Assembly (NCBI GenBank): GCA_964518475.1
Contig: CAZFGR010000001.1
Location: 32,001-96,000, forward strand
DNA: 64,000 nucleotides
Direction: 5' to 3'
Origin: an uncultured Nitrososphaerota archaeon
GTDB lineage: Archaea; Asgardarchaeota; Njordarchaeia; Njordarchaeales; Njordarchaeaceae
Part shown: one piece after another, positions 14,726-42,413 of the stretch
Layout of the letters: every line of letters begins with the position of its first letter
Position numbering within the stretch: the stretch's first letter is position 1
Made by a program: the position numbers and the translations under genes
Notes under the pieces: generated by a model
Seen by the model: the letters and a program-made list of their open reading frames with translations, nothing else
The model's database searches: none
Told to the model about the DNA's origin: nothing

Positions 14726-14938
14726 CTAGAAAATTATCCATGCAGAGATTACAAGCAAGATAAATAACAGAGAGATCGCGGTGACTGCCCTTGGTCCTAC
14801 CTTTATGCCCATTTCTTCCTCTTCATAGAATCTTAAAAGTCCAGCCCCCGTAGGAGGCGTTGTTAATCGCCTCGATTTTCTTCTAGCTCTTTTTTCTTCT
14901 AATTCTTCCTCTTCATACTCCCAATAATCCTCTGACAT
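14726..14938 (-). CDS. secG: Preprotein translocase subunit Sec61beta
   Basis: GAGLLRFYEEE..GIKVGP motif followed by one C-terminal TM helix. Confidence 0.92.
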   Translation of the reverse strand: MSEDYWEYEEEELEEKRARRKSRRLTTPPTGAGLLRFYEEEEMGIKVGPRAVTAISLLFILLVISAWIIF

Positions 14939-14959
14939 ATATCATACACTTCCTCTAAA

Positions 14960-15271
14960 TCATCCAAGCATATCAGCAGAACTTATTTGGAACGAGACAA
15001 TGTTGTATTCACGAAGAATATCCCCAACCTTCTTACCAGCAAAGTATATTGGTTCTCCTCCACCAGTCAATCCTATCCTTCCGCTTTTTATGCCTAATTT
15101 TTCAGCTGCTTCAAGCACTACTCGCTCCATTGAATCATTTATTGTCGTTCTGATCGCTATTGTTTTTCTCAGATTATCCGCCCTCTGGAAATATAGTGTA
15201 ACTATTTCGGGCAATTCTTCGTGTTCCTCAGTTTGCTTAAGCTCAGCGATTTTTTTATCACGCGATTCCAT
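14960..15271 (-). CDS. UFM1-like ubiquitin-fold modifier
   Basis: Beta-grasp-sized core aligns by eye with UFM1: VLEAAEKLGI vs VLKFAAEEFKV, TGGGEPI vs TNDGIGI, KVGDILREY vs TAGNVFLKH; ends DMLG vs mature UFM1 DRVG. Confidence 0.72.
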   Translation of the reverse strand: MESRDKKIAELKQTEEHEELPEIVTLYFQRADNLRKTIAIRTTINDSMERVVLEAAEKLGIKSGRIGLTGGGEPIYFAGKKVGDILREYNIVSFQISSADMLG

Positions 15272-15377
15272 TCATTTCACCGCATTAAACACTAAAATCA
15301 ACCTAATACTTCTCAAGTCATTTAGCTTACTAAAATCTATCTTAAAATGCACCTCACAGGGAAAGCCCAATCATCGA

Positions 15378-15779
15378 CTATTTCAATATCTCGTCGAGAT
15401 GCTTCTTAGCCTTCTTTTTCAATTTTTCATCTTTCATCAGATTAGATTCTCTAATCTCAGCAAATTCGTCCTTAAGAGAATCCATGCTCACTTTGAGATC
15501 ACTAAGAATCTGTGCGAAAGAATCTAGTTTACCAACTAATTTACTAATACTTATGGACAATTTCAAGATATGATCCTCAATTCTCTTCATCATATTAACT
15601 AATTCAGAAGTATTCTCATTAATCGTTGATAAAACCTCATTCCAAGCCTCCACTAATGATTTTAGAGATTCGGCGCTTGGTACTGGTCCCCGGGGCGTCT
15701 CTATAACATCTATAACTATAACCTTTTCCTTCTTCTCTGATTCGCCCTTACTCAATACTCTCACTCCCACAATACTCAC
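15378..15779 (-). CDS. Hypothetical coiled-coil protein between the UBA5-like and UFM1-like genes
   Basis: Short beta segment (VIVIDVIETPRGPVP) followed by a long heptad helix; ORF overlaps the E1 gene end. Confidence 0.7.
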   Translation of the reverse strand: MSIVGVRVLSKGESEKKEKVIVIDVIETPRGPVPSAESLKSLVEAWNEVLSTINENTSELVNMMKRIEDHILKLSISISKLVGKLDSFAQILSDLKVSMDSLKDEFAEIRESNLMKDEKLKKKAKKHLDEILK

Positions 15780-16515
15780 AGTTTCTCCTTCTCTTTACCT
15801 TATCGTCACTTAATACTGTAATACTATTGTTACGCAAGCTAATTATTATCCTAGGAGCCACGTCATTATTATGTAATATCTTTAATCCTTGATCTACCTG
15901 AATAGCCGCTATAATACTTATGGTTGTGGGTAATGAGGCGTCACAAGATCCGGATTCCTCCTCCCCTCCCAGCTCCACCAGAGTTCCCTCTCCAAAATAA
16001 CACCCTAGACAAGGTGTCTTATATGGAATAACCGTTATAACACGCCCCCCTAGACCATCAGTACTTGTTCCTCCATCGATAAGAGGCTTCCGAAGTTTTA
16101 CAATCCAGTAATTAATCTCTAGCCTAGCCTCTACATTATCAAAGCATGTAAAAACAAGATCGCACTTCTTTAAAATCTCTGGAAGCTTCTCCCAACCTAT
16201 AACATCGACATAGTACGTTTCTATATCTGGTGCAAAATTGCCTAGAATCTTCGATATCTTCGCCAGTTTATTAGCTAACGCATTTACTTTCGGTTTACCA
16301 ATATCCTCTACCTCAAAACCTAGTCTATTGAAGTTCTCCGGCCCGACAATATCACGATCCACAAGAATTAGCTTCCCAATACCTAACCTGCCCAGCATCT
16401 CAGCAACCAAAACTCCTAAACCTCCAACTCCTAAAACACATGCGACTTTACTATGCACCAGCTCTGGATCCACTCCCGCCCTTTTTACTCTCTCCAGCAT
16501 GGGGGGTAGAGCCAC
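15748..16515 (-). CDS. UBA5-like E1 activating enzyme (ThiF/MoeB superfamily)
   Basis: GVGGLG, AEMLGRLGIGKL, NFNRL, CFDNVEAR, Zn ligands CLGC and CEYC, and GSCDASLPTT matching the UBA5 catalytic motif GVCAASLPTT. Confidence 0.85.
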   Translation of the reverse strand: MALPPMLERVKRAGVDPELVHSKVACVLGVGGLGVLVAEMLGRLGIGKLILVDRDIVGPENFNRLGFEVEDIGKPKVNALANKLAKISKILGNFAPDIETYYVDVIGWEKLPEILKKCDLVFTCFDNVEARLEINYWIVKLRKPLIDGGTSTDGLGGRVITVIPYKTPCLGCYFGEGTLVELGGEEESGSCDASLPTTISIIAAIQVDQGLKILHNNDVAPRIIISLRNNSITVLSDDKVKRRRNCEYCGSESIE

Positions 16516-17833
16516 TTTCCCTCGCCTCCCTTCTTTTCCTCTTTTTCTCCCTCATATATAACAATCGTACAAATAGTAATGGATGAGACATCTCCTTTTC
16601 ATATCTTCTACCCATCAAGAAACTTAGATATTCACTGCAAGCTTTTCGAGCTTCTCCTTCCCTCATTCTTCTTAGTATAGTTACAAGCACTTTATCGGGC
16701 ATTTCTTGGTGCATATTCTTGAGAATTTCCTTCAACTGTTCAGAGGACAAGGATTTGAATGGACAGAAATACTTAGCTATTATGGTTTCACATTTCGGCG
16801 CTTCATAATCTTTTCTCCCTCCAACTAATCCATAGATGTGTTTTATATAATATCCACCTTTCCGCTCAAATTCCTCCCAAGACATACCAAAATTATCAAC
16901 TGCTGATTTGTACCATAATTGTAATTGCTCTTCCAAGCTCATACCTAGTTTTTTAAGAAATAGTCCTAGTTGTAACCTTTCCCCATGAGTAAGATAACCT
17001 GAAGTTCTAAGTCTATTAATCAGTATTTTCATACATAATGGCCATAGATCCTCTCGCTCATATAGCTTTTCACCCACTACCTTAAAATCTTTGTATTTGA
17101 TACTCATTAGATCCCTCTTCTCCCTCCAGTAAGAGAGAATTCTCTCTGCTACTTCTTGCAAGATAAGAACTTTTGTATCTCCCTCTTTTTTGCGTTGACT
17201 TAGATGCTTAATTCTCGCCTCCAGTTTCGTTTGAAAGCATTTCTTTATTTCAGCTAATAGGAACCTCATCGTCGTTACGATCCATCCCTTATGGGGAAAG
17301 CCACGGTGCTTAATAAGAAGCCATGGAACCTCCCAGAATTTTACCGCTACTCCTCCAAGCTCGTTCCGATAAATGTCAGTATAAAGCTTTGTCATCGTTT
17401 CCTTTCTCCTAGTATCACTAGGTAATAATACCGCTAATTCCTTTAATATATCATCTCTGCTAATTCCTAGACGAGATGTTATCTCCTTCCATCCTATAAT
17501 TACGTTATCACCTAGCAAGTCCTTTATTATTGCAATTTTATCTCCAATCGAAGCCCTCTCCATCCAATACGAGAAAAAATCACCCTCATGCTCTAGAAAC
17601 CATAACTTGAAAAGGTTATCTTCCGATAAAGCTGCTGTAATTATCAAAGAGAAGCAACCCAGCGGATTCAAAACGTCCTCATTAGACTTTAAAAAAGCCT
17701 CCTCCCTATCCCTCGCAATACTCAATAGGAAATCTACCCTTTTCTTACCAGCTTCAACTAGTTGATCCAGATTTACTGAGCCATGAAGCTTTTGTAACGG
17801 ATACCACTTAGGTAGTTTTGACTCCAGAAACAT
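16451..17833 (-). CDS. priL: DNA primase large subunit, eukaryote-like (PRIM2/p58 type)
   Basis: Fe-S domain WPLCM...LTHGERLQLGLFLK...Y.IKHIYG..G.RKDY...C...CPF...AC...HP. Confidence 0.9.
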   Translation of the reverse strand: MFLESKLPKWYPLQKLHGSVNLDQLVEAGKKRVDFLLSIARDREEAFLKSNEDVLNPLGCFSLIITAALSEDNLFKLWFLEHEGDFFSYWMERASIGDKIAIIKDLLGDNVIIGWKEITSRLGISRDDILKELAVLLPSDTRRKETMTKLYTDIYRNELGGVAVKFWEVPWLLIKHRGFPHKGWIVTTMRFLLAEIKKCFQTKLEARIKHLSQRKKEGDTKVLILQEVAERILSYWREKRDLMSIKYKDFKVVGEKLYEREDLWPLCMKILINRLRTSGYLTHGERLQLGLFLKKLGMSLEEQLQLWYKSAVDNFGMSWEEFERKGGYYIKHIYGLVGGRKDYEAPKCETIIAKYFCPFKSLSSEQLKEILKNMHQEMPDKVLVTILRRMREGEARKACSEYLSFLMGRRYEKEMSHPLLFVRLLYMREKKRKRREARESGSTPHAGESKKGGSGSRAGA

Positions 17834-18415
17834 CTAGTCACCCCCACCCGGTCCCTTAGCCAACATGTCAATAACTATTTCATCAATTAATTCGGGGGGA
17901 GGCATTAGAGCTTGCCCAAGTTCTGTCAAAATGATTTTTCCAGAATCAGCGTCGAGTCTAATGATTTTCTCTCTTTCGAGCTTCTTAAGAGCCTTTCGCA
18001 AGAGCTTATCTACTTTTTCTTCATCACCAATAAGGGCTAGCAAATCGTTTCTTAACACTGATAAGAAAATTTCTCCTCCCTTACTTCTAAAAAATATAAG
18101 CGCCAGGACACCCATGACATCCTTACTATAAGGCCGTAACTCCCCAAGTTTTATAGCTGGATCAATCACAGCTACGAAAATCTCGCTTCGCCTACTCCTC
18201 CTAACAACTCGTACCCTCTTAAGTTTTAGCCCAATCTTCTCGAACCTTCTCTCAAGCTCTTTTAAGCATTCTTCTAGAGGGATCCGTGATTTCTTCAAAA
18301 TCTTTATTACCTTGCTCACCGGTGCACCTATACTTCTATAACGACTGGCTAGGATATAGGCCGCCGCCTCCCGAATCGCTTGTTCAGCTTCCTCTGGTAA
18401 ATCTTTGCTACTCAT
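17834..18415 (-). CDS. Tandem winged-helix KITE-like protein (Nse1/Nse3/MAGE/ScpB-like)
   Basis: Two WH-like halves (LKELERRFEKIGLKLKRV; MGVLALIFFRSKGGEI...ALKKLEREKII...IILTELG); lies in an SMC gene cluster. Confidence 0.65.
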   Translation of the reverse strand: MSSKDLPEEAEQAIREAAAYILASRYRSIGAPVSKVIKILKKSRIPLEECLKELERRFEKIGLKLKRVRVVRRSRRSEIFVAVIDPAIKLGELRPYSKDVMGVLALIFFRSKGGEIFLSVLRNDLLALIGDEEKVDKLLRKALKKLEREKIIRLDADSGKIILTELGQALMPPPELIDEIVIDMLAKGPGGGD

Positions 18416-19097
18416 ATCGTTTCACCTTAACGATGTTCTCCTTATAATCATACAATAAATTACCATTTTTCAACAGTCTTAACACTCCAATAACACGTAG
18501 TTTCACTTCTAGCTCCGTCTGCACTAACTCCCGTCTTCTTACTACTTCCTCTATTCTACACTTCCCCTCGTTTTTTATTATTTCATTAAGTAATGTCTCC
18601 TCCAACTTCTTCAGGAAAGAATTCTTTTTGAGTAGATGAGTTACTATCTCAGGCAATACTCTCTTTAACCTCTTCTTTAACGCTTTCCGAACCTTTTGTC
18701 CTCCAAGAATTAGTTGTTCAAGACCTTCTTTTAACGCTTCATATGAAAATCCTTGGATAGAAACAATATGTGTGATGGGGAATTCTTCGCGTTTAACGGC
18801 TTCTAGAACCATCTTTATACTTGATAAGGGTTTGTTGAGAGAAACTTTACTAGCTTGTAATAACTGTTCAACATAATTGTGTCTAGCTTTAACATAAAGA
18901 TTAAGCATTTGAAAGAAAGAGATGCCAAGATCCGTATCCCTAATCAGAATACGCCTAACATCAGCATTATCTGATATGTCTACGATATTATTGAGAATAA
19001 TCCGTGGAAGACCCTCAGCCCCTGTCTTAATGTATTCTTTCATTAACCTAATTGTTCTTACCACGATACCCCGATTCTTATCACGGCTACGACTCAT
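18408..19097 (-). CDS. Putative kleisin (ScpA/Nse4-like)
   Basis: Helical N-terminus and C-terminal WH-like LRVIGVLRLLKNGNLLYD; located between the SMC and KITE-like genes. Confidence 0.5.
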   Translation of the reverse strand: MSRSRDKNRGIVVRTIRLMKEYIKTGAEGLPRIILNNIVDISDNADVRRILIRDTDLGISFFQMLNLYVKARHNYVEQLLQASKVSLNKPLSSIKMVLEAVKREEFPITHIVSIQGFSYEALKEGLEQLILGGQKVRKALKKRLKRVLPEIVTHLLKKNSFLKKLEETLLNEIIKNEGKCRIEEVVRRRELVQTELEVKLRVIGVLRLLKNGNLLYDYKENIVKVKRYE

Positions 19098-19134
19098 TTT
19101 AACCAGAACCTAATTCAACAATATCTCTTCCAAT

Positions 19135-36939: not shown

Positions 36940-37224
36940 TTAGCCGCCGCTTAGGAACGGCATTATTGAAACAATATCACCATTCTTTAACTTAGTCCCA
37001 AGATCGTTAACTGATTGACCATTAATAAGAACTATTATGTTTTCGCTAAGGGTTTTTCTCTGACTTGATTCGAAAAGTACTTTCTCTAGTTTTTCACCAT
37101 ATTTCTCCACTAACACATTTAATAGGTCTCTAATCGTTGCATCGTCTGGTAATGATATCTCCTCTTCTTTTACTTCATTAGTTAACTGTCTAAGATACGC
37201 GAAATACCTAACCTTTACCTGCAA
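36940..37224 (-). CDS. MoaD/SAMP-family ubiquitin-like sulfur carrier
   Basis: VKVRYFA.LR, VLING, L..GD.V.I.P and C-terminal SGG; next to AOR. Confidence 0.92.
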   Translation of the reverse strand: MQVKVRYFAYLRQLTNEVKEEEISLPDDATIRDLLNVLVEKYGEKLEKVLFESSQRKTLSENIIVLINGQSVNDLGTKLKNGDIVSIMPFLSGG

Positions 37225-38669: not shown

Positions 38670-39686
38670 GTGAATAACATGACTATTGATGAAAATGCAT
38701 TAAGGATAATAGAGGACACAAGCAAGAGAATATCACAGATGATCGTAAGAGGCGCTACAAACATTGCTATCGAAGCTATGAAGAGTCTAGAGAGTTTTAT
38801 TAGGAACGTCCGAGACAACGCGCTGGAACTAAGTTTCTATAAAGCAGTAGAGATATTATTCAAGAGCAGACCGACAGAACCCGCAATGCAAAATGGCATT
38901 ATTTATGTCCTCGCAACATTTGAGAAAGAGAAACAGGAAACAAACTCTATATCTGAGTTAAAAAATGCCCTTATCACAGCGACACGAGAATATATAAGCC
39001 TACTTAAAACAGCTATTAATAAAATAATTGAGATTGGGTGGAGACGCGTTCCAGAAAACGGTATTGTTATGACTCATTGCCACTCATCAACTGTTGTCTC
39101 GATCCTGCAAAAAGCAAAAGATGCTGGTAAGAAATTCATTATTATTAGTTCGGAAACGAGACCCCTTTACCAAGGTCGAAAAACCTCCAAAGAACTAGGG
39201 AGCTATGGAATAAAAGTCTACCATATCGTTGACAGTGCAATGCGATGGGCCGCTAGAAAATTTAAACCTGATATGGCATTGATTGGTGCTGATGCCGTTA
39301 CTAGTACTGGCGTTGTTATAAATAAGATAGGCAGTAAACTTTTAGCACTAGTAGCCGCCGAATTCGATTTTCCCCTTTACGTCGCTACAACACTCCTAAA
39401 ACTCGATCCTAAGACTTTATTGGGTGGTTATACTCCGATAGAAATTAGAGATCCAAGAGAGGTGTGGGAAAACCCTCCCAGAAATATTGAAGTTTTAAAT
39501 CCAGCATTTGAGACAATCGATCCCAGATATATAGACGGAATAATAACTGAAGCGGGAATAATTCCCCCAGAGATCTTTCAGTTAAAATTTGAAAGCACAT
39601 ATCCTAGGATATGGAATATAATCTCCAGTGAACAGGTAAGAAAACTATTTTTTTTTAAAAACTGTTTGGGAGAGAGATTCAAATGA
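38670..39686 (+). CDS. Ribose-1,5-bisphosphate isomerase (eIF-2B alpha/beta/delta family)
   Basis: VRGA, SRPTEP, THCHSSTV, ETRP.YQG, GADAV, NKIG and NPAFE motifs. Confidence 0.88.
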   Translation: MNNMTIDENALRIIEDTSKRISQMIVRGATNIAIEAMKSLESFIRNVRDNALELSFYKAVEILFKSRPTEPAMQNGIIYVLATFEKEKQETNSISELKNALITATREYISLLKTAINKIIEIGWRRVPENGIVMTHCHSSTVVSILQKAKDAGKKFIIISSETRPLYQGRKTSKELGSYGIKVYHIVDSAMRWAARKFKPDMALIGADAVTSTGVVINKIGSKLLALVAAEFDFPLYVATTLLKLDPKTLLGGYTPIEIRDPREVWENPPRNIEVLNPAFETIDPRYIDGIITEAGIIPPEIFQLKFESTYPRIWNIISSEQVRKLFFFKNCLGERFK

Positions 39687-40783
39687 TTCCTCCCGATTTA
39701 AGAGTAAAAATAACAAGAACGGGTGCAGAAATAGAGGCTCCGCTCCCTAAGGAGGAAATTTTGAATATTATCACGTCTCAGACGATCTCACAATTTAGAA
39801 AAAAATTCCGTAGAGCATTAGTTGAGTTCTATGGAAAAAACATCTTAGCGGGTGTTAGATTCATTAAAAATCTATTCGAAAGCTTGACAAGAGCAAAAAT
39901 TCCAGACAGTATTGATGATCTCTACGCAATTATTGAAGAGACTGAAAAAACTCGCCCCGATATATTCATACACATTAATGAAAAAAAGATTACATTCGCC
40001 TCAAAAATCATTAAGACTAGTGAGAAAGAATTAGAAGACTTCTTTACAATAATCTGTACCCTAAAGAGACCCGCTCGAGGAAGCGTATATAAATTCTTTA
40101 TTAGAAAAAACCTCAGACCAATAATTAATTTCTTGGAAAAAAATCAAGAAAAACTCAATGGACTACATGAACTTCTCCTCCATGAATCAATGCTAAGAAT
40201 AGCACAGGAAACACTTAGTAAGAACATACAAGCAGAAATGTTCAGATTTCTCCCAAGAGAACAGTCGGTAATAATCAACATTAGGAAAACTCCATTGAAA
40301 TTAATAGAGATCTTCTCTCCAATAGAAGGAGATCTTCCTCCATATCCTATTATAGAAATCCTTCCCCAAATTAATGAAAAAGTCTCGGAACTTATAATTT
40401 CCTACTCAACAACAAGCGTAATGAATTATGTCACCACCTTTCTAGAAGAATATCTCAAATCCGTTGAGCCGGGAAACATTAGCCTTCATATGCTAGAAAA
40501 ATCGGATAGATTGCTTCTATCAATGATAGATAATGTATCCGTAGCCCATTTCGAAATTCTGCGCCAGGAAAACATACTAAACTCATCGCATACCCTACCT
40601 TCAAAGATTCTTGATGTAGCAATGGCTGTTCTTCGCGAGAAAATTTATACAAAAATAATTATTAGCAAAAACATCCAGTTACAGCTTCACGCATATCCTC
40701 AGACAAAATTCATTACACTAGATGAGAATTGGTCGGAATTTATTAAAGAGGAGATAAAATCGTTAAAAACGAAAATCGGTTGA
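39683..40783 (+). CDS. Hypothetical protein
   Basis: 366-aa ORF that overlaps both neighbours; no recognised motif. Confidence 0.65.
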   Translation: MIPPDLRVKITRTGAEIEAPLPKEEILNIITSQTISQFRKKFRRALVEFYGKNILAGVRFIKNLFESLTRAKIPDSIDDLYAIIEETEKTRPDIFIHINEKKITFASKIIKTSEKELEDFFTIICTLKRPARGSVYKFFIRKNLRPIINFLEKNQEKLNGLHELLLHESMLRIAQETLSKNIQAEMFRFLPREQSVIINIRKTPLKLIEIFSPIEGDLPPYPIIEILPQINEKVSELIISYSTTSVMNYVTTFLEEYLKSVEPGNISLHMLEKSDRLLLSMIDNVSVAHFEILRQENILNSSHTLPSKILDVAMAVLREKIYTKIIISKNIQLQLHAYPQTKFITLDENWSEFIKEEIKSLKTKIG

Positions 40784-41793
40784 TAATCATGAAAAACCCT
40801 AGTAAGTGTTTTCTATGCCCCCATGAGTGTGAGGACGTTAGCGATCTAGTTAATGGTCTTTGTTACATAATAGGCCGAGAGAAAACAAGAGGAATAAACA
40901 CCGTCTCTGCCGAAATTGTAAACGTTGAATCAGCTGGTTTTTTTCATTTTTTTCCCGGACATGAAGCTGTGAAGATTGCTCTCCCCGGATGCAACTTGCG
41001 ATGTCTCTTCTGTGATTACTTGGGTGGAGAGAAAAATTGGATCGTTATCTCAGAACTTGAGAAAAAACTTTCTCTTTTGCTTGAAAAGAGTTCTCCACTG
41101 ATATTATTTCTGGATTGCAGTTTCTCTATACTTCCTCCAGAACCATTGACGAGGATTATAAAATGGAAGAAAGTGTATAGGGGCGATGTCTGGATAATCC
41201 ACGCAACAAACGGTTTTGTTGACGAGAATCACTTTAAGAGCATTATTGAGCATCTGGACGCTCTCCTCGTAAAATTTTTTGGATTCTCGGATGAAGCTTA
41301 CGGGAGGCTCACGATTACGCCACGGGCTTGGAAGTATGCACAAAAAATTGTTGAGAGAGTACTTGAGAGAGGTCCTCTACTTGAACTATCATATACTATT
41401 GTCCCTGGCTTTAATGAAAAAGACTACAAGGAGTTCTTAAACTGGTTATCGTCGCTTAGACAATTTGATATACCACTTCATATTAGACGATTTTATCCAA
41501 AACATTTGTTAAAGAATAAAGCACCTACACGAACCAAGATTCTCATGGACGCTTTTAAGGAAGCCAAAAAGATGGGTTTTAATTACGTCTATATCGACGA
41601 TATATACGAAGGCGTACCCAGAAATACTTATTGTCCTAATGACAGAACCCTCTTAATACGGAGAGTAGGATATTTCGTAGAGAACACAGGAATCATCGAA
41701 TCAAAATGTAAAAAGTGTGGAAAAAGAATTAATGTTTTTGGAAAAATAAAGGAAACGGACATAAGAAGCATATTAAAACTTCCAGGAGAATGA
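40780..41793 (+). CDS. Radical SAM protein (divergent AmmeMemoRadiSam / PFL-activase-like)
   Basis: GCNLRCLFC, FFHFFPG, IVPGFN, PLHI.RFYP and NTYCP...CKKCG motifs. Confidence 0.8.
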   Translation: MIIMKNPSKCFLCPHECEDVSDLVNGLCYIIGREKTRGINTVSAEIVNVESAGFFHFFPGHEAVKIALPGCNLRCLFCDYLGGEKNWIVISELEKKLSLLLEKSSPLILFLDCSFSILPPEPLTRIIKWKKVYRGDVWIIHATNGFVDENHFKSIIEHLDALLVKFFGFSDEAYGRLTITPRAWKYAQKIVERVLERGPLLELSYTIVPGFNEKDYKEFLNWLSSLRQFDIPLHIRRFYPKHLLKNKAPTRTKILMDAFKEAKKMGFNYVYIDDIYEGVPRNTYCPNDRTLLIRRVGYFVENTGIIESKCKKCGKRINVFGKIKETDIRSILKLPGE

Positions 41794-42413
41794 TTCTAAT
41801 GAGTGACAATAGAAATGATAGCACTCTCATCAATATAAAGGAAGCAATTAACGATCACGTTGTTATCAGATTTGATAAACATCTAAGACAAACCATAATT
41901 AAGCTAGAACTACACTTGATGAGATTACCTAATAACTATTTCTTAACAATCTTTAAGCATTGCCTAGATATATGGATTCGCCGCCCTCTCCCTCTGTTTA
42001 ACATAAAGGCAGGTCCAAGTGATAGAAACTGGTCTTTGAGAATAAGAGAGGAAAAGCGGGTCTTTCGGATACTTAAAAAGCATAACCCGTTCAGCAATAT
42101 TATCTCTTACCAATTATTAGAAAATGCTGATTCGAAGGGGAAGAAATGGATCCTCATTTACTTAGATACATTAACTTATCAGCCTAAACACGTCGAAATA
42201 ACGATTCCTAATAATTATCCTCGAACACCCCCGGTAGTACACAGCCATGAGATAAAAAAGTTAGATCAGTGCCTCAACAAAGCGGATGAAAATATAGCGT
42301 CCCTATGGAGGAAAGATGGTAGATACGGTATTCCTCATTTTTTGGCATACTTTTTTTCTCCTTTGCTATATATGACCGCTTCTATTTTAAAAATAAGAAA
42401 AATATTCCAATAA
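41790..42413 (+). CDS. UFC1-like E2 conjugating enzyme
   Basis: LPLFNIKAGPSDRNWSLRIREE, GKKW, IPNNYPRTPP, a Cys in DQCL and LW....YGIPHFLA...P align in order with remembered UFC1 motifs. Confidence 0.75.
   Translation: MILMSDNRNDSTLINIKEAINDHVVIRFDKHLRQTIIKLELHLMRLPNNYFLTIFKHCLDIWIRRPLPLFNIKAGPSDRNWSLRIREEKRVFRILKKHNPFSNIISYQLLENADSKGKKWILIYLDTLTYQPKHVEITIPNNYPRTPPVVHSHEIKKLDQCLNKADENIASLWRKDGRYGIPHFLAYFFSPLLYMTASILKIRKIFQ

Follow-up and report, generated by a model that had tools for sequence, protein, structure and literature searches.

The 64,000-nucleotide (nt) stretch of DNA analysed here, referred to as the window (G000:C1:32001-96000), belongs to a 2.33-Mb metagenome-assembled genome of the archaeal order Njordarchaeales that is 91% complete. 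Its proteins have homologues that NCBI names Njordarchaeales or Njordarchaeia, which puts the genome among the Asgard archaea. Three DNA sequencing runs from sediment or hydrothermal-vent metagenomes carry the whole or part of the window, and no RNA run was among the sequencing runs listed as carrying it. The minus strand holds a co-directional row of genes for an SMC-like protein, two small proteins, the primase large subunit PriL, an activating enzyme for ubiquitin-like proteins (E1_2), a coiled-coil protein of 133 amino acids (aa; cc133), a ubiquitin-like protein (Ubl2), Sec61beta, triosephosphate isomerase and RpoB (Table 1). E1_2, Ubl2 and their link to the translocon gene are the subject of this work. 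An original prediction, made from the sequence alone, had read them as a UFM1 conjugation module, and all the genes, motifs and coordinates that it gave were found at the positions indicated. The E1 does lie two genes upstream of the modifier, the open reading frame of cc133 standing in between, and the distance of 21 nt reported from the modifier's stop to Sec61beta is exactly that from the Ubl2 stop to the ATG. The two genes share a reading frame, being separated by the TGA of Ubl2, five sense codons, a second TGA and one further codon.

Ubl2 ends in ISSADMLG followed directly by TGA, that is, in a single glycine and not in Gly-Gly. Its family is small: a word-index search returned 16 clusters at 90% identity, and in these homologue clusters (65-100% identity) the last three residues, M101, L102 and G103, were invariant. 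Thirteen of the 16 stopped exactly at the glycine; the three exceptions were one with an added lysine, one fusion to Sec61beta and one profile match with a longer tail. As judged from this alignment, the terminal glycine is not a product of chance, and the proposal that the modifier is encoded already mature was borne out, Gly103 lying directly before the stop codon. A search of 1.84 billion protein representatives with the family profile (A1) gave 16 matches, about 11 of them real, and also recovered short Asgard Ubls ending in D-M-L-G plus one or two residues. Four profile matches (P0117, P0128, P0129 and P0131) were dropped as spurious, being repetitive and matching many unrelated Pfam models. 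Two other metagenomic relatives of the Ubl were recorded: P0118, a Ubl ending in SAEMLG fused to a 268-aa C-terminal part with CxxC pairs and no assigned family, and P0122, a tandem di-Ubl lacking a terminal glycine.

The AlphaFold2 (AF2) model of Ubl2 predicted a beta-grasp core, with a predicted local distance difference test (pLDDT) value of about 90, preceded by 20 disordered residues. On comparison of this model with solved structures by VIA-align, the top nine Protein Data Bank (PDB) entries were all UFM1 (Z 10.4-12.3), superposing with root-mean-square deviations of 1.5-3.2 Å over 75-87 residues (6.0 Å in one case), and other Ubls reached a Z of 10.4 or less, with ubiquitin at about 9. 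Gly103 fell on UFM1 residue 83 in the UFC1-UFM1 conjugate 8bzr (chain B). Foldseek TM scores by query were 0.64-0.67 for UFM1 and 0.51-0.57 for ubiquitin, and in an Atlas search one Ufm1 cluster had the best two-way TM score with Ubl2 (0.69/0.77). No MoaD or ThiS chain was present among the 50 PDB entries listed for the model. The modifier is thus predicted, as had been supposed, to be a beta-grasp protein not of the MoaD/ThiS/SAMP kind.

E1_2 is listed as a protein of 255 aa starting with GTG at 16515; an ATG at 16500, which gives the 250 aa of the database record, is the more likely start. The protein contains the motifs VAEMLGRLGIGKL, ENFNRL and GSCDASLPTT and matched Pfam ThiF (PF00899) with an E value of 1.2e-39. 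Its top PDB sequence matches were five human UBA5 constructs (E about 3e-26, 96 bits), as compared with 61 bits for ThiF and 54.5 bits for MoeB. HMMER aligned GSCDASLPTT on GVCAASLPTT of the solved human UBA5 structure 6h78, around the catalytic cysteine, in agreement with the likeness to the UBA5 active-site motif noticed originally. By this alignment the catalytic residue of E1_2 is Cys191, embedded in the adenylation domain. It was invariant across 16 E1_2 orthologs, as were C169, C172, C246 and C249, which form two CxxC pairs that could bind zinc. Having UBA5 as best match was discriminating, since the neighbouring ThiF clades taken as controls matched other PDB proteins best (P0094, ThiF/MoeB; P0110, UBA1/SAE2). 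Among the models scoring above 60 bits, those of NCBIfam for ThiF, MoeB and UbaA gave E1_2 62-92 bits against cut-offs of 159-510, that of UbaA, the E1 of haloarchaeal SAMPs, giving 62 bits against a cut-off of 450. In a tree of non-eukaryotic E1 homologues, the E1_2 type formed a clade of 17 clusters (SH-aLRT 97). Its sister was a wider Asgard type of 55 clusters, including those of Hel-, Frey- and Promethearchaeota, with a joint support of 98 and a long stem.

The gene for cc133 was found directly behind E1_2, with stop and start overlapping or abutting, wherever E1_2 was seen (the window, L011-13, L015-18 and L031-32). In the window its tentatively assigned start overlaps the E1_2 stop. The N-terminal part carries the strongly conserved motif K-x-[IV]-x-I-[DE]-V-I-[ED]-T-P-R-G-x-V-P-[ST]-A-E ahead of a coiled coil, and the protein is free of cysteine (alignment A4); it fell in no family of Pfam, NCBIfam or the Atlas. 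We consider it probably an accessory protein of the E1.

The original prediction had counted an E2 as part of the context, and the genome does encode UFC1-like E2s with an invariant cysteine, in three paralogs (E2_1, E2_2 and E2_3). E2_3, which lies inside the window, matched Pfam UFC1 (PF08694) with an E value of 9e-8 and 32.4 bits, above the cut-off of 25, and shows homology to both other paralogs. Its gene closes a translationally coupled row with 4-nt overlaps (38670-42413, plus strand), in which it is preceded by genes for a member of the IF-2B family, an unknown protein of 366 aa and a radical SAM enzyme; an ortholog, in the same gene row, was found in G290 only. E2_2 is located 83 kb beyond the end of the window. 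It scored 30.1 bits with Pfam UFC1 (cut-off 25), every one of its PDB sequence matches was UFC1 (E 4e-6), and its cysteine aligned on the catalytic C116. Orthologs of E2_2 occurred in 12 of the 14 genomes of the order, a distribution that matches that of Ubl2, and in all 12 the gene lay directly behind that of a protein of 127 aa containing four CxxC pairs, which may be its E3-like or adaptor partner. E2_1 is tied to UFC1 only through its paralogs. An alignment of 12 members of this E2 family showed, besides the invariant cysteine, the motifs RV.EE, YP..P and G[IL][AP]H. Across the phylum the UFC1 profile found matches in at least 29 of the 400 Asgard genomes, and the 14 control genomes gave no match; the former number is a lower bound, as the own-genome PF08694 search missed E2_3 and the phylum-wide run missed the copies of this genome. 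No UQ_con E2 scored over the cut-off in this genome.

About 20 kb from the E1_2-Ubl2 locus, the same genome holds a complete operon of a protease (JAB1), an E1, an E2 and a Ubl, the parent copy of the cassette, here called system 1. JAB1 (361 aa) is a JAMM protease with a C-terminal Ubl-like region and a coiled coil; E1_1 (272 aa) has the motif GQCDASLATT and UBA5 as its top PDB match at 93 bits; E2_1 has 175 aa; and Ubl1 (96 aa) has the C-terminus KDLLG followed by DDF, so that it would need processing. System 1 is kept in G290 and G287, E1_1 and E2_1 are adjacent in G284, and a row of Ubl, E2 and JAB genes exists in G119, from a distant Asgard family. From the E1 tree, the E1_2-Ubl2 locus is a lineage-specific paralog (system 2) of this Asgard cassette. 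It is, then, a duplicate specific to Njordarchaeales of a cassette whose components are also present in further Asgard lineages, a point that the original prediction had not weighed. In most relatives a second protease, JAB2 (232-280 aa), homologous to the N-terminal domain of JAB1, is encoded between the Ubl and Sec61beta. The JAMM site E...HxHP...SxxD was invariant in JAB1 of this genome and in nine JAB1- or JAB2-type proteins of relatives, and Pfam Prok-JAB matches to these proteins were weak or faint only. A genome search found no JAB2 copy in the genome of the window, which fits Ubl2 being encoded mature.

Table 1 Features of the E1_2-Ubl2 locus and of related genes in the same genome. 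Positions are those of the window unless a contig is named.
Feature	Position	Strand	Basis or remark
PriL, primase large subunit	16451-17833	-	Member of the gene row, before E1_2
E1_2, UBA5-like Ubl-activating enzyme, adenylation domain only	15748-16515	-	Pfam ThiF, PDB match to human UBA5
cc133, conserved coiled-coil protein, probable accessory, 133 aa	15378-15779	-	Alignment A4, synteny
AT-rich spacer ahead of Ubl2, 106 nt	15272-15377	-	Read from sequence
Ubl2, modifier of predicted UFM1 fold, 103 aa, encoded mature	14960-15271	-	AF2 model, VIA-align, conserved M-L-G
Sec61beta, only copy detected in genome	14726-14938	-	Pfam PF03911, NCBIfam
E2_3, UFC1-like E2 paralog, 207 aa, Cys in DQCLNK	41790-42413	+	Pfam UFC1
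System 1 operon JAB1/E1_1/E2_1/Ubl1	G000:C1:23800-26643 (L023:9800-12643), 5.4-8.2 kb before window	-	Homology
127-aa zinc-ribbon protein and E2_2, genes overlapping	G000:C1:178890-179800 (L004:1429-2360)	-	Weak DUF4428 match
MoaD/ThiS/SAMP-like protein, 94 aa, ends LSGG	36940-37224	-	Sequence
Classical MoeB/ThiF, 244 aa	Contig C12:59-793		Likely partner of the 94-aa protein

The Sec61beta gene was recognized by Pfam (PF03911, E 6e-13, 49 bits against a cut-off of 27) and by NCBIfam (E 3e-14, 52.4 bits, slightly below the model's cut-off of 55 bits), and a genome search found this single copy. The protein has a hydrophobic C-terminus, AISLLFILLVISAWIIF, read from the sequence as the C-terminal transmembrane anchor, and an aromatic/poly-Glu N-terminal extension, MSEDYWEYEEEELEE, before the usual basic patch. 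All seven Sec61beta sequences of the genus, both fusions described below included, began with such an aromatic/poly-Glu segment, MSWEWEEEEEEE or MSEDYWEYEEEE, followed by the basic patch, as compared with the short basic N-terminus, of MSS-KKKKKK type, of 11 Sec61beta proteins from seven other Asgard families, the sister family among them. By this comparison of sequences, the acidic aromatic (Trp/poly-Glu) N-terminus is specific to the genus of the window.

Pairing of the Ubl with Sec61beta was seen in every contig of the same GTDB genus examined that reaches past the Ubl (L021 and L022 stop inside JAB2), in the five other Ubl-matching genomes as well as in further metagenome contigs. The pair occurred in three gene orders: PriL-E1-cc-Ubl-Sec61beta, co-directional (the window and G290); Ubl-JAB2-Sec61beta, convergent with cc-E1-PriL; and Ubl-JAB2-Sec61beta-x163, with the E1 elsewhere. 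In some relatives the Ubl, JAB2 (where present) and Sec61beta form a transcription unit of their own, convergent with cc-E1. In the window, the AT-rich spacer ahead of Ubl2 may hold a separate promoter for Ubl2 and Sec61beta; the promoter and terminator scan used bacterial-type models and is uninformative in this archaeal host. The 163-aa protein x163, present after Sec61beta in the third arrangement (L014:7382-7873, L019:7375-7866, L027 and L028), was tried as an E2 and rejected on testing, and it matches no known family.

Two in-frame fusions of the Ubl to Sec61beta were also found. The first, in the G290 lineage and with the junction SADMLG-APP-MSEEFWEE, was present in three independent assemblies and in the GTDB genome G290; the second, more divergent, with the junction SADMLG-SWQRREEE, was present on one 1.8-kb contig. 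Their Ubl identities are 76% and 47%, respectively. In the sister family, Ubl-JAB2 is followed by other genes (TruA-like after JAB2), and Sec61beta lies 4-9 kb from the Ubl on the same contig in four out of five genomes. In other Asgard cassettes of this type, no Sec61beta was seen in the 1.5-kb flanks examined. Tight coupling of the Ubl to Sec61beta is thus a genus-level trait and a looser linkage an order-level one. The conserved adjacency foreseen in the original prediction held within the genus, through three gene orders and two fusions, and broke down in the sister family, and its proposal that the Sec61beta link is ancestral was not upheld, direct adjacency being limited to one genus. 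No outgroup that could give this change in linkage a direction carries Ubl2.

Some other features of the region were recorded on their own account. The genes preceding PriL (row 17834-22401) code for an SMC-like ATPase of 1088 aa (19135-22401, minus strand) and two small proteins, one of 229 aa and one of 193 aa that weakly matches MksE. This row is kept in relatives, and the three proteins are possibly a condensin-like module. The 94-aa protein ending in LSGG and the classical MoeB/ThiF of contig C12 are likely a sulfur-carrier pair separate from the UFM1-like systems.

On this evidence the locus likely encodes the activating half of a conjugation system of UFM1 type, coupled to Sec and paralogous to a cassette of JAMM protease, UBA5-like E1, UFC1-like E2 and UFM1-like Ubl. 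That E1_2 and Ubl2 are an E1 and a modifier of UFM1 type is well supported by homology and context. Several observations nevertheless weigh against it. At the sequence level the membership of Ubl2 in the UFM1 family was not sustained: none of the 16 members of its family matched PF03671 at E values up to 10, a profile search gave no PF03671 match in the genome, the family profile found no eukaryotic UFM1 among the 1.84 billion proteins, the wider profile A2 found no UFM1 chain in the PDB, and the Atlas language-model features of Ubl2 gave 'ubiquitin-like' only and nothing specific to UFM1. The assignment of Ubl2 is accordingly a structural and contextual one, in which the model favours UFM1 by a modest margin (a Z gap of about 2) and the enzymes provide the context. 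For E1_2, the original view of a UBA5-type enzyme, as opposed to MoeB, ThiF or UbaA, stood by sequence and did not by fold, since the search with its AF2 model (pLDDT 88) separated UBA5 from neither MoeB nor ThiF (Z 28.8, 29.5 and 29.3, respectively). E1_2 also ends a few residues past its second CxxC, its model aligns to UBA5 residues 41-318 only, and it lacks the C-terminal tail of UBA5 with the UFM1-interacting (UIS) and UFC1-binding (UBS) sequences, whose roles have been described (PMC5428781). Speculatively, cc133 might replace in trans the binding tail that this short E1 is missing. No homologue of UFL1, DDRGK1 or UFSP (Peptidase_C78) reached threshold in the genome, which leaves the system with no recognized E3. 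More than one of the three E2s could serve Ubl2, E2_2 being the best candidate by distribution and E2_3 the alternative. Finally, the coupling to Sec61beta was observed in one genus plus one short contig, where kinship means shared gene order and few independent events, and the neighbouring triosephosphate isomerase, RpoB, PriL and SMC genes are housekeeping genes, so that passive linkage is conceivable.

We therefore weighed the possibility that E1_2 and Ubl2 are a real conjugation pair whose Sec61beta neighbourhood is meaningless, an inherited order of housekeeping genes (SMC, PriL, Sec61beta, triosephosphate isomerase and RpoB) in which the fusions are neutral losses of a stop codon. Such an explanation would suit the confinement of direct adjacency to one GTDB genus, the distant Sec61beta and the TruA-like neighbour of JAB2 in the sister family, the flanks of other Asgard cassettes devoid of Sec61beta, the housekeeping nature of the surrounding genes and the single 1.8-kb contig behind the second fusion. 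However, the pairing has outlived three rearrangements, in which the E1 was moved, the unit inverted and JAB2 inserted or removed; the two fusions differ in junction and in the divergence of their Ubls; a fusion blocks the C-terminal glycine, so that selection should remove it if it were neither processed nor functional; and the Sec61beta N-terminus is altered in this genus only. We hold mere passive linkage to be rather unlikely, and the coupling itself is real and, within the genus, probably functional.

It should also be considered that Ubl2 might act mainly as a non-covalent or cis-acting Ubl domain of Sec61beta, the fused form being the functional one and the split form derived. The natural fusions in two lineages, the in-frame spacing of 21 nt in the window and the absence of a terminal glycine from the related di-Ubl P0122 could be so understood, but most family members end exactly at the invariant M-L-G, the Ubl is accompanied by a paralogous E1 of its own, whose catalytic cysteine is invariant, in most genomes the gene of a JAMM protease that appears active from its conserved site separates the Ubl from Sec61beta, and the Ubl of the sister family has no adjoining Sec61beta, which together make this reading improbable. 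Most implausible of all is a sulfur carrier of the MoaD/ThiS/SAMP/Urm1 type, adenylated by the E1 to yield a thiocarboxylate for the thiolation of cofactors or tRNA: E1_2 is of MoeB/ThiF size, has a fold as near to theirs as to that of UBA5 and matches the NCBIfam ThiF and MoeB models weakly, yet those scores and that of UbaA are far under their cut-offs, Ubl2 ends in L-G instead of G-G and is modelled nearest to UFM1 with neither MoaD nor ThiS among the 50 entries listed, UFC1-like E2s and JAMM proteases accompany the family, and the genome has a separate classical MoeB/ThiF and a GG-ending MoaD/SAMP-like protein.

If the locus works as a UFM1-type system, homology suggests the following course. 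E1_2, probably as a homodimer with structural zinc, would adenylate the free Gly103 of Ubl2 and take it over as a thioester on Cys191. Ubl2 would then be handed to the cysteine of a UFC1-like E2 (E2_2 or, alternatively, E2_3), which would join it to lysines of target proteins, and JAMM proteases, JAB2 in relatives and JAB1 here, would replace the Cys protease UFSP in processing or removal. Loss of JAB2 from this genome would have been possible because Ubl2 is encoded mature. The Sec translocon is the most likely place of action because of the coupling, which includes a single transcription unit, two independent in-frame fusions and the genus-specific Sec61beta N-terminus. Sec61beta might be a substrate or, with its N-terminus of acidic and aromatic residues, a docking site; it might also be a partner that is made together with Ubl2 and cut free from a fused precursor, as happens with ubiquitin-ribosomal protein fusions. 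We put forward, tentatively, that this archaeon, which has no endoplasmic reticulum (ER), couples a UFM1-type modifier to its Sec translocon, Ubl2 being delivered to, docked on or attached to Sec61beta through the N-terminus of the latter or through fusion.

Among the major ubiquitin-like pathways, UFMylation is understood least; the role best established for it is that it frees or exposes 60S subunits at the SEC61 translocon. The protein types of the archaeal cascade are the three of the eukaryotic system, UFM1, UBA5 and UFC1 (PF03671, PF00899 and PF08694). Like UFM1, Ubl2 has a single terminal glycine and, in its model, a beta-grasp that superposes best on UFM1; like UBA5, E1_2 is a one-domain enzyme with its catalytic cysteine inside the adenylation domain in G-x-C-x-A-S-L-P-T-T; like UFC1, the archaeal E2 passes the curated PF08694 cut-off and aligns cysteine on cysteine; and, like UFMylation, the system has a tie with the Sec61 translocon, which in this case consists in gene order and fusion. 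It differs in that Ubl2 has no detectable sequence similarity to UFM1, bears a disordered N-terminal extension of 20 residues and is encoded mature, in that E1_2 is devoid of the C-terminal UFM1-interacting and UFC1-binding sequences, and in that the protease is a JAMM metalloprotease, whereas the eukaryotic UFSP is a Cys protease. UFL1, DDRGK1 and CDK5RAP3 were not detected in this genome, the archaeal E1 has a coiled-coil companion and the archaeal E2 a zinc-ribbon one, and the translocon link is Sec61beta itself and not, as far as known, uL24, to which UFM1 is mainly attached at the ribosome-translocon junction (PMC10120006; PMC11354881).

Other known systems are comparable in part. As in the ubiquitin fusions Ub-eL40 and Ub-eS31, a modifier stands in frame ahead of a small subunit belonging to machinery that it might serve, with its glycine at the junction; unlike in those, the modifier is paired with a subunit of a membrane translocon, fusion is limited to some lineages, the window has two stops between the genes, and cleavage is putative. 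The archaeal SAMP/UbaA system and the Caldiarchaeum-type operons likewise combine an archaeal Ubl, a MoeB-like E1 and a JAMM protease. However, SAMPs end in GG, work without an E2 and double as sulfur carriers, and the Caldiarchaeum system has a ubiquitin-like Ubl, a UBC-type E2 and a RING E3, whereas no UQ_con E2 was seen in the present genome.

Ufm1 was once reported as absent from prokaryotes (Grau-Bove et al. 2015, PMC4327156), and later UFM1, UFC1, UFSP2 and C53 were held to be exclusive to eukaryotes, with UBA5 having homologues in archaea and bacteria and UFL1 and DDRGK1 coming from Asgard archaea (Picchianti et al. 2023, PMC10183829). Archaeal UBA5-like E1s have been described (PMC10183829; PMC11354881), and Ufm1 homologues have been found in nine Asgard clades, in a text that mentions neither UBA5 nor UFC1 (Kostlbacher et al. 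2026, PMC12962969), so that Asgard Ufm1 and archaeal UBA5 homologues are already known, as the original prediction had acknowledged for the former. The present locus is probably among what these studies detected (PMC12962969; PMC10183829; PMC11354881), because the profile search reached short Asgard Ubls that end in D-M-L-G plus one or two residues and the E1 clade takes in proteins of Hel-, Frey- and Promethearchaeota. Those papers give the modifier or the E1 alone, as compared with an operon of E1, E2, JAMM protease and Ubl here and a second set tied to Sec61beta. A literature search of incomplete coverage returned no description of Asgard UFC1-like E2s, of the JAMM protease of the cassette or of a coupling of Sec61beta to an archaeal Ubl, and found UFC1 and Asgard archaea together only in the exclusivity statement of 2023 (PMC10183829).

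This genome unites an E1, UFC1-like E2s, a protease and a modifier in the form of an operon, a second paralogous set, and a gene link between modifier and Sec61beta that includes fusions in relatives. It also offers a small, soluble and thermophile-derived set of proteins for in vitro tests of the origin of the UFM1 cascade. The Sec61beta arrangement suggests that this archaeon may have a counterpart of the UFMylation that takes place at the ER translocon of eukaryotes. Should the proposed coupling to the translocon be true, a UFM1-fold domain would sit at the ribosome-translocon junction of this archaeon, as UFM1 does on uL24 in eukaryotes, and the connection of UFM1 with the translocon would be older than eukaryotes or would have arisen twice; the locus opens a direct test of whether that link is old.

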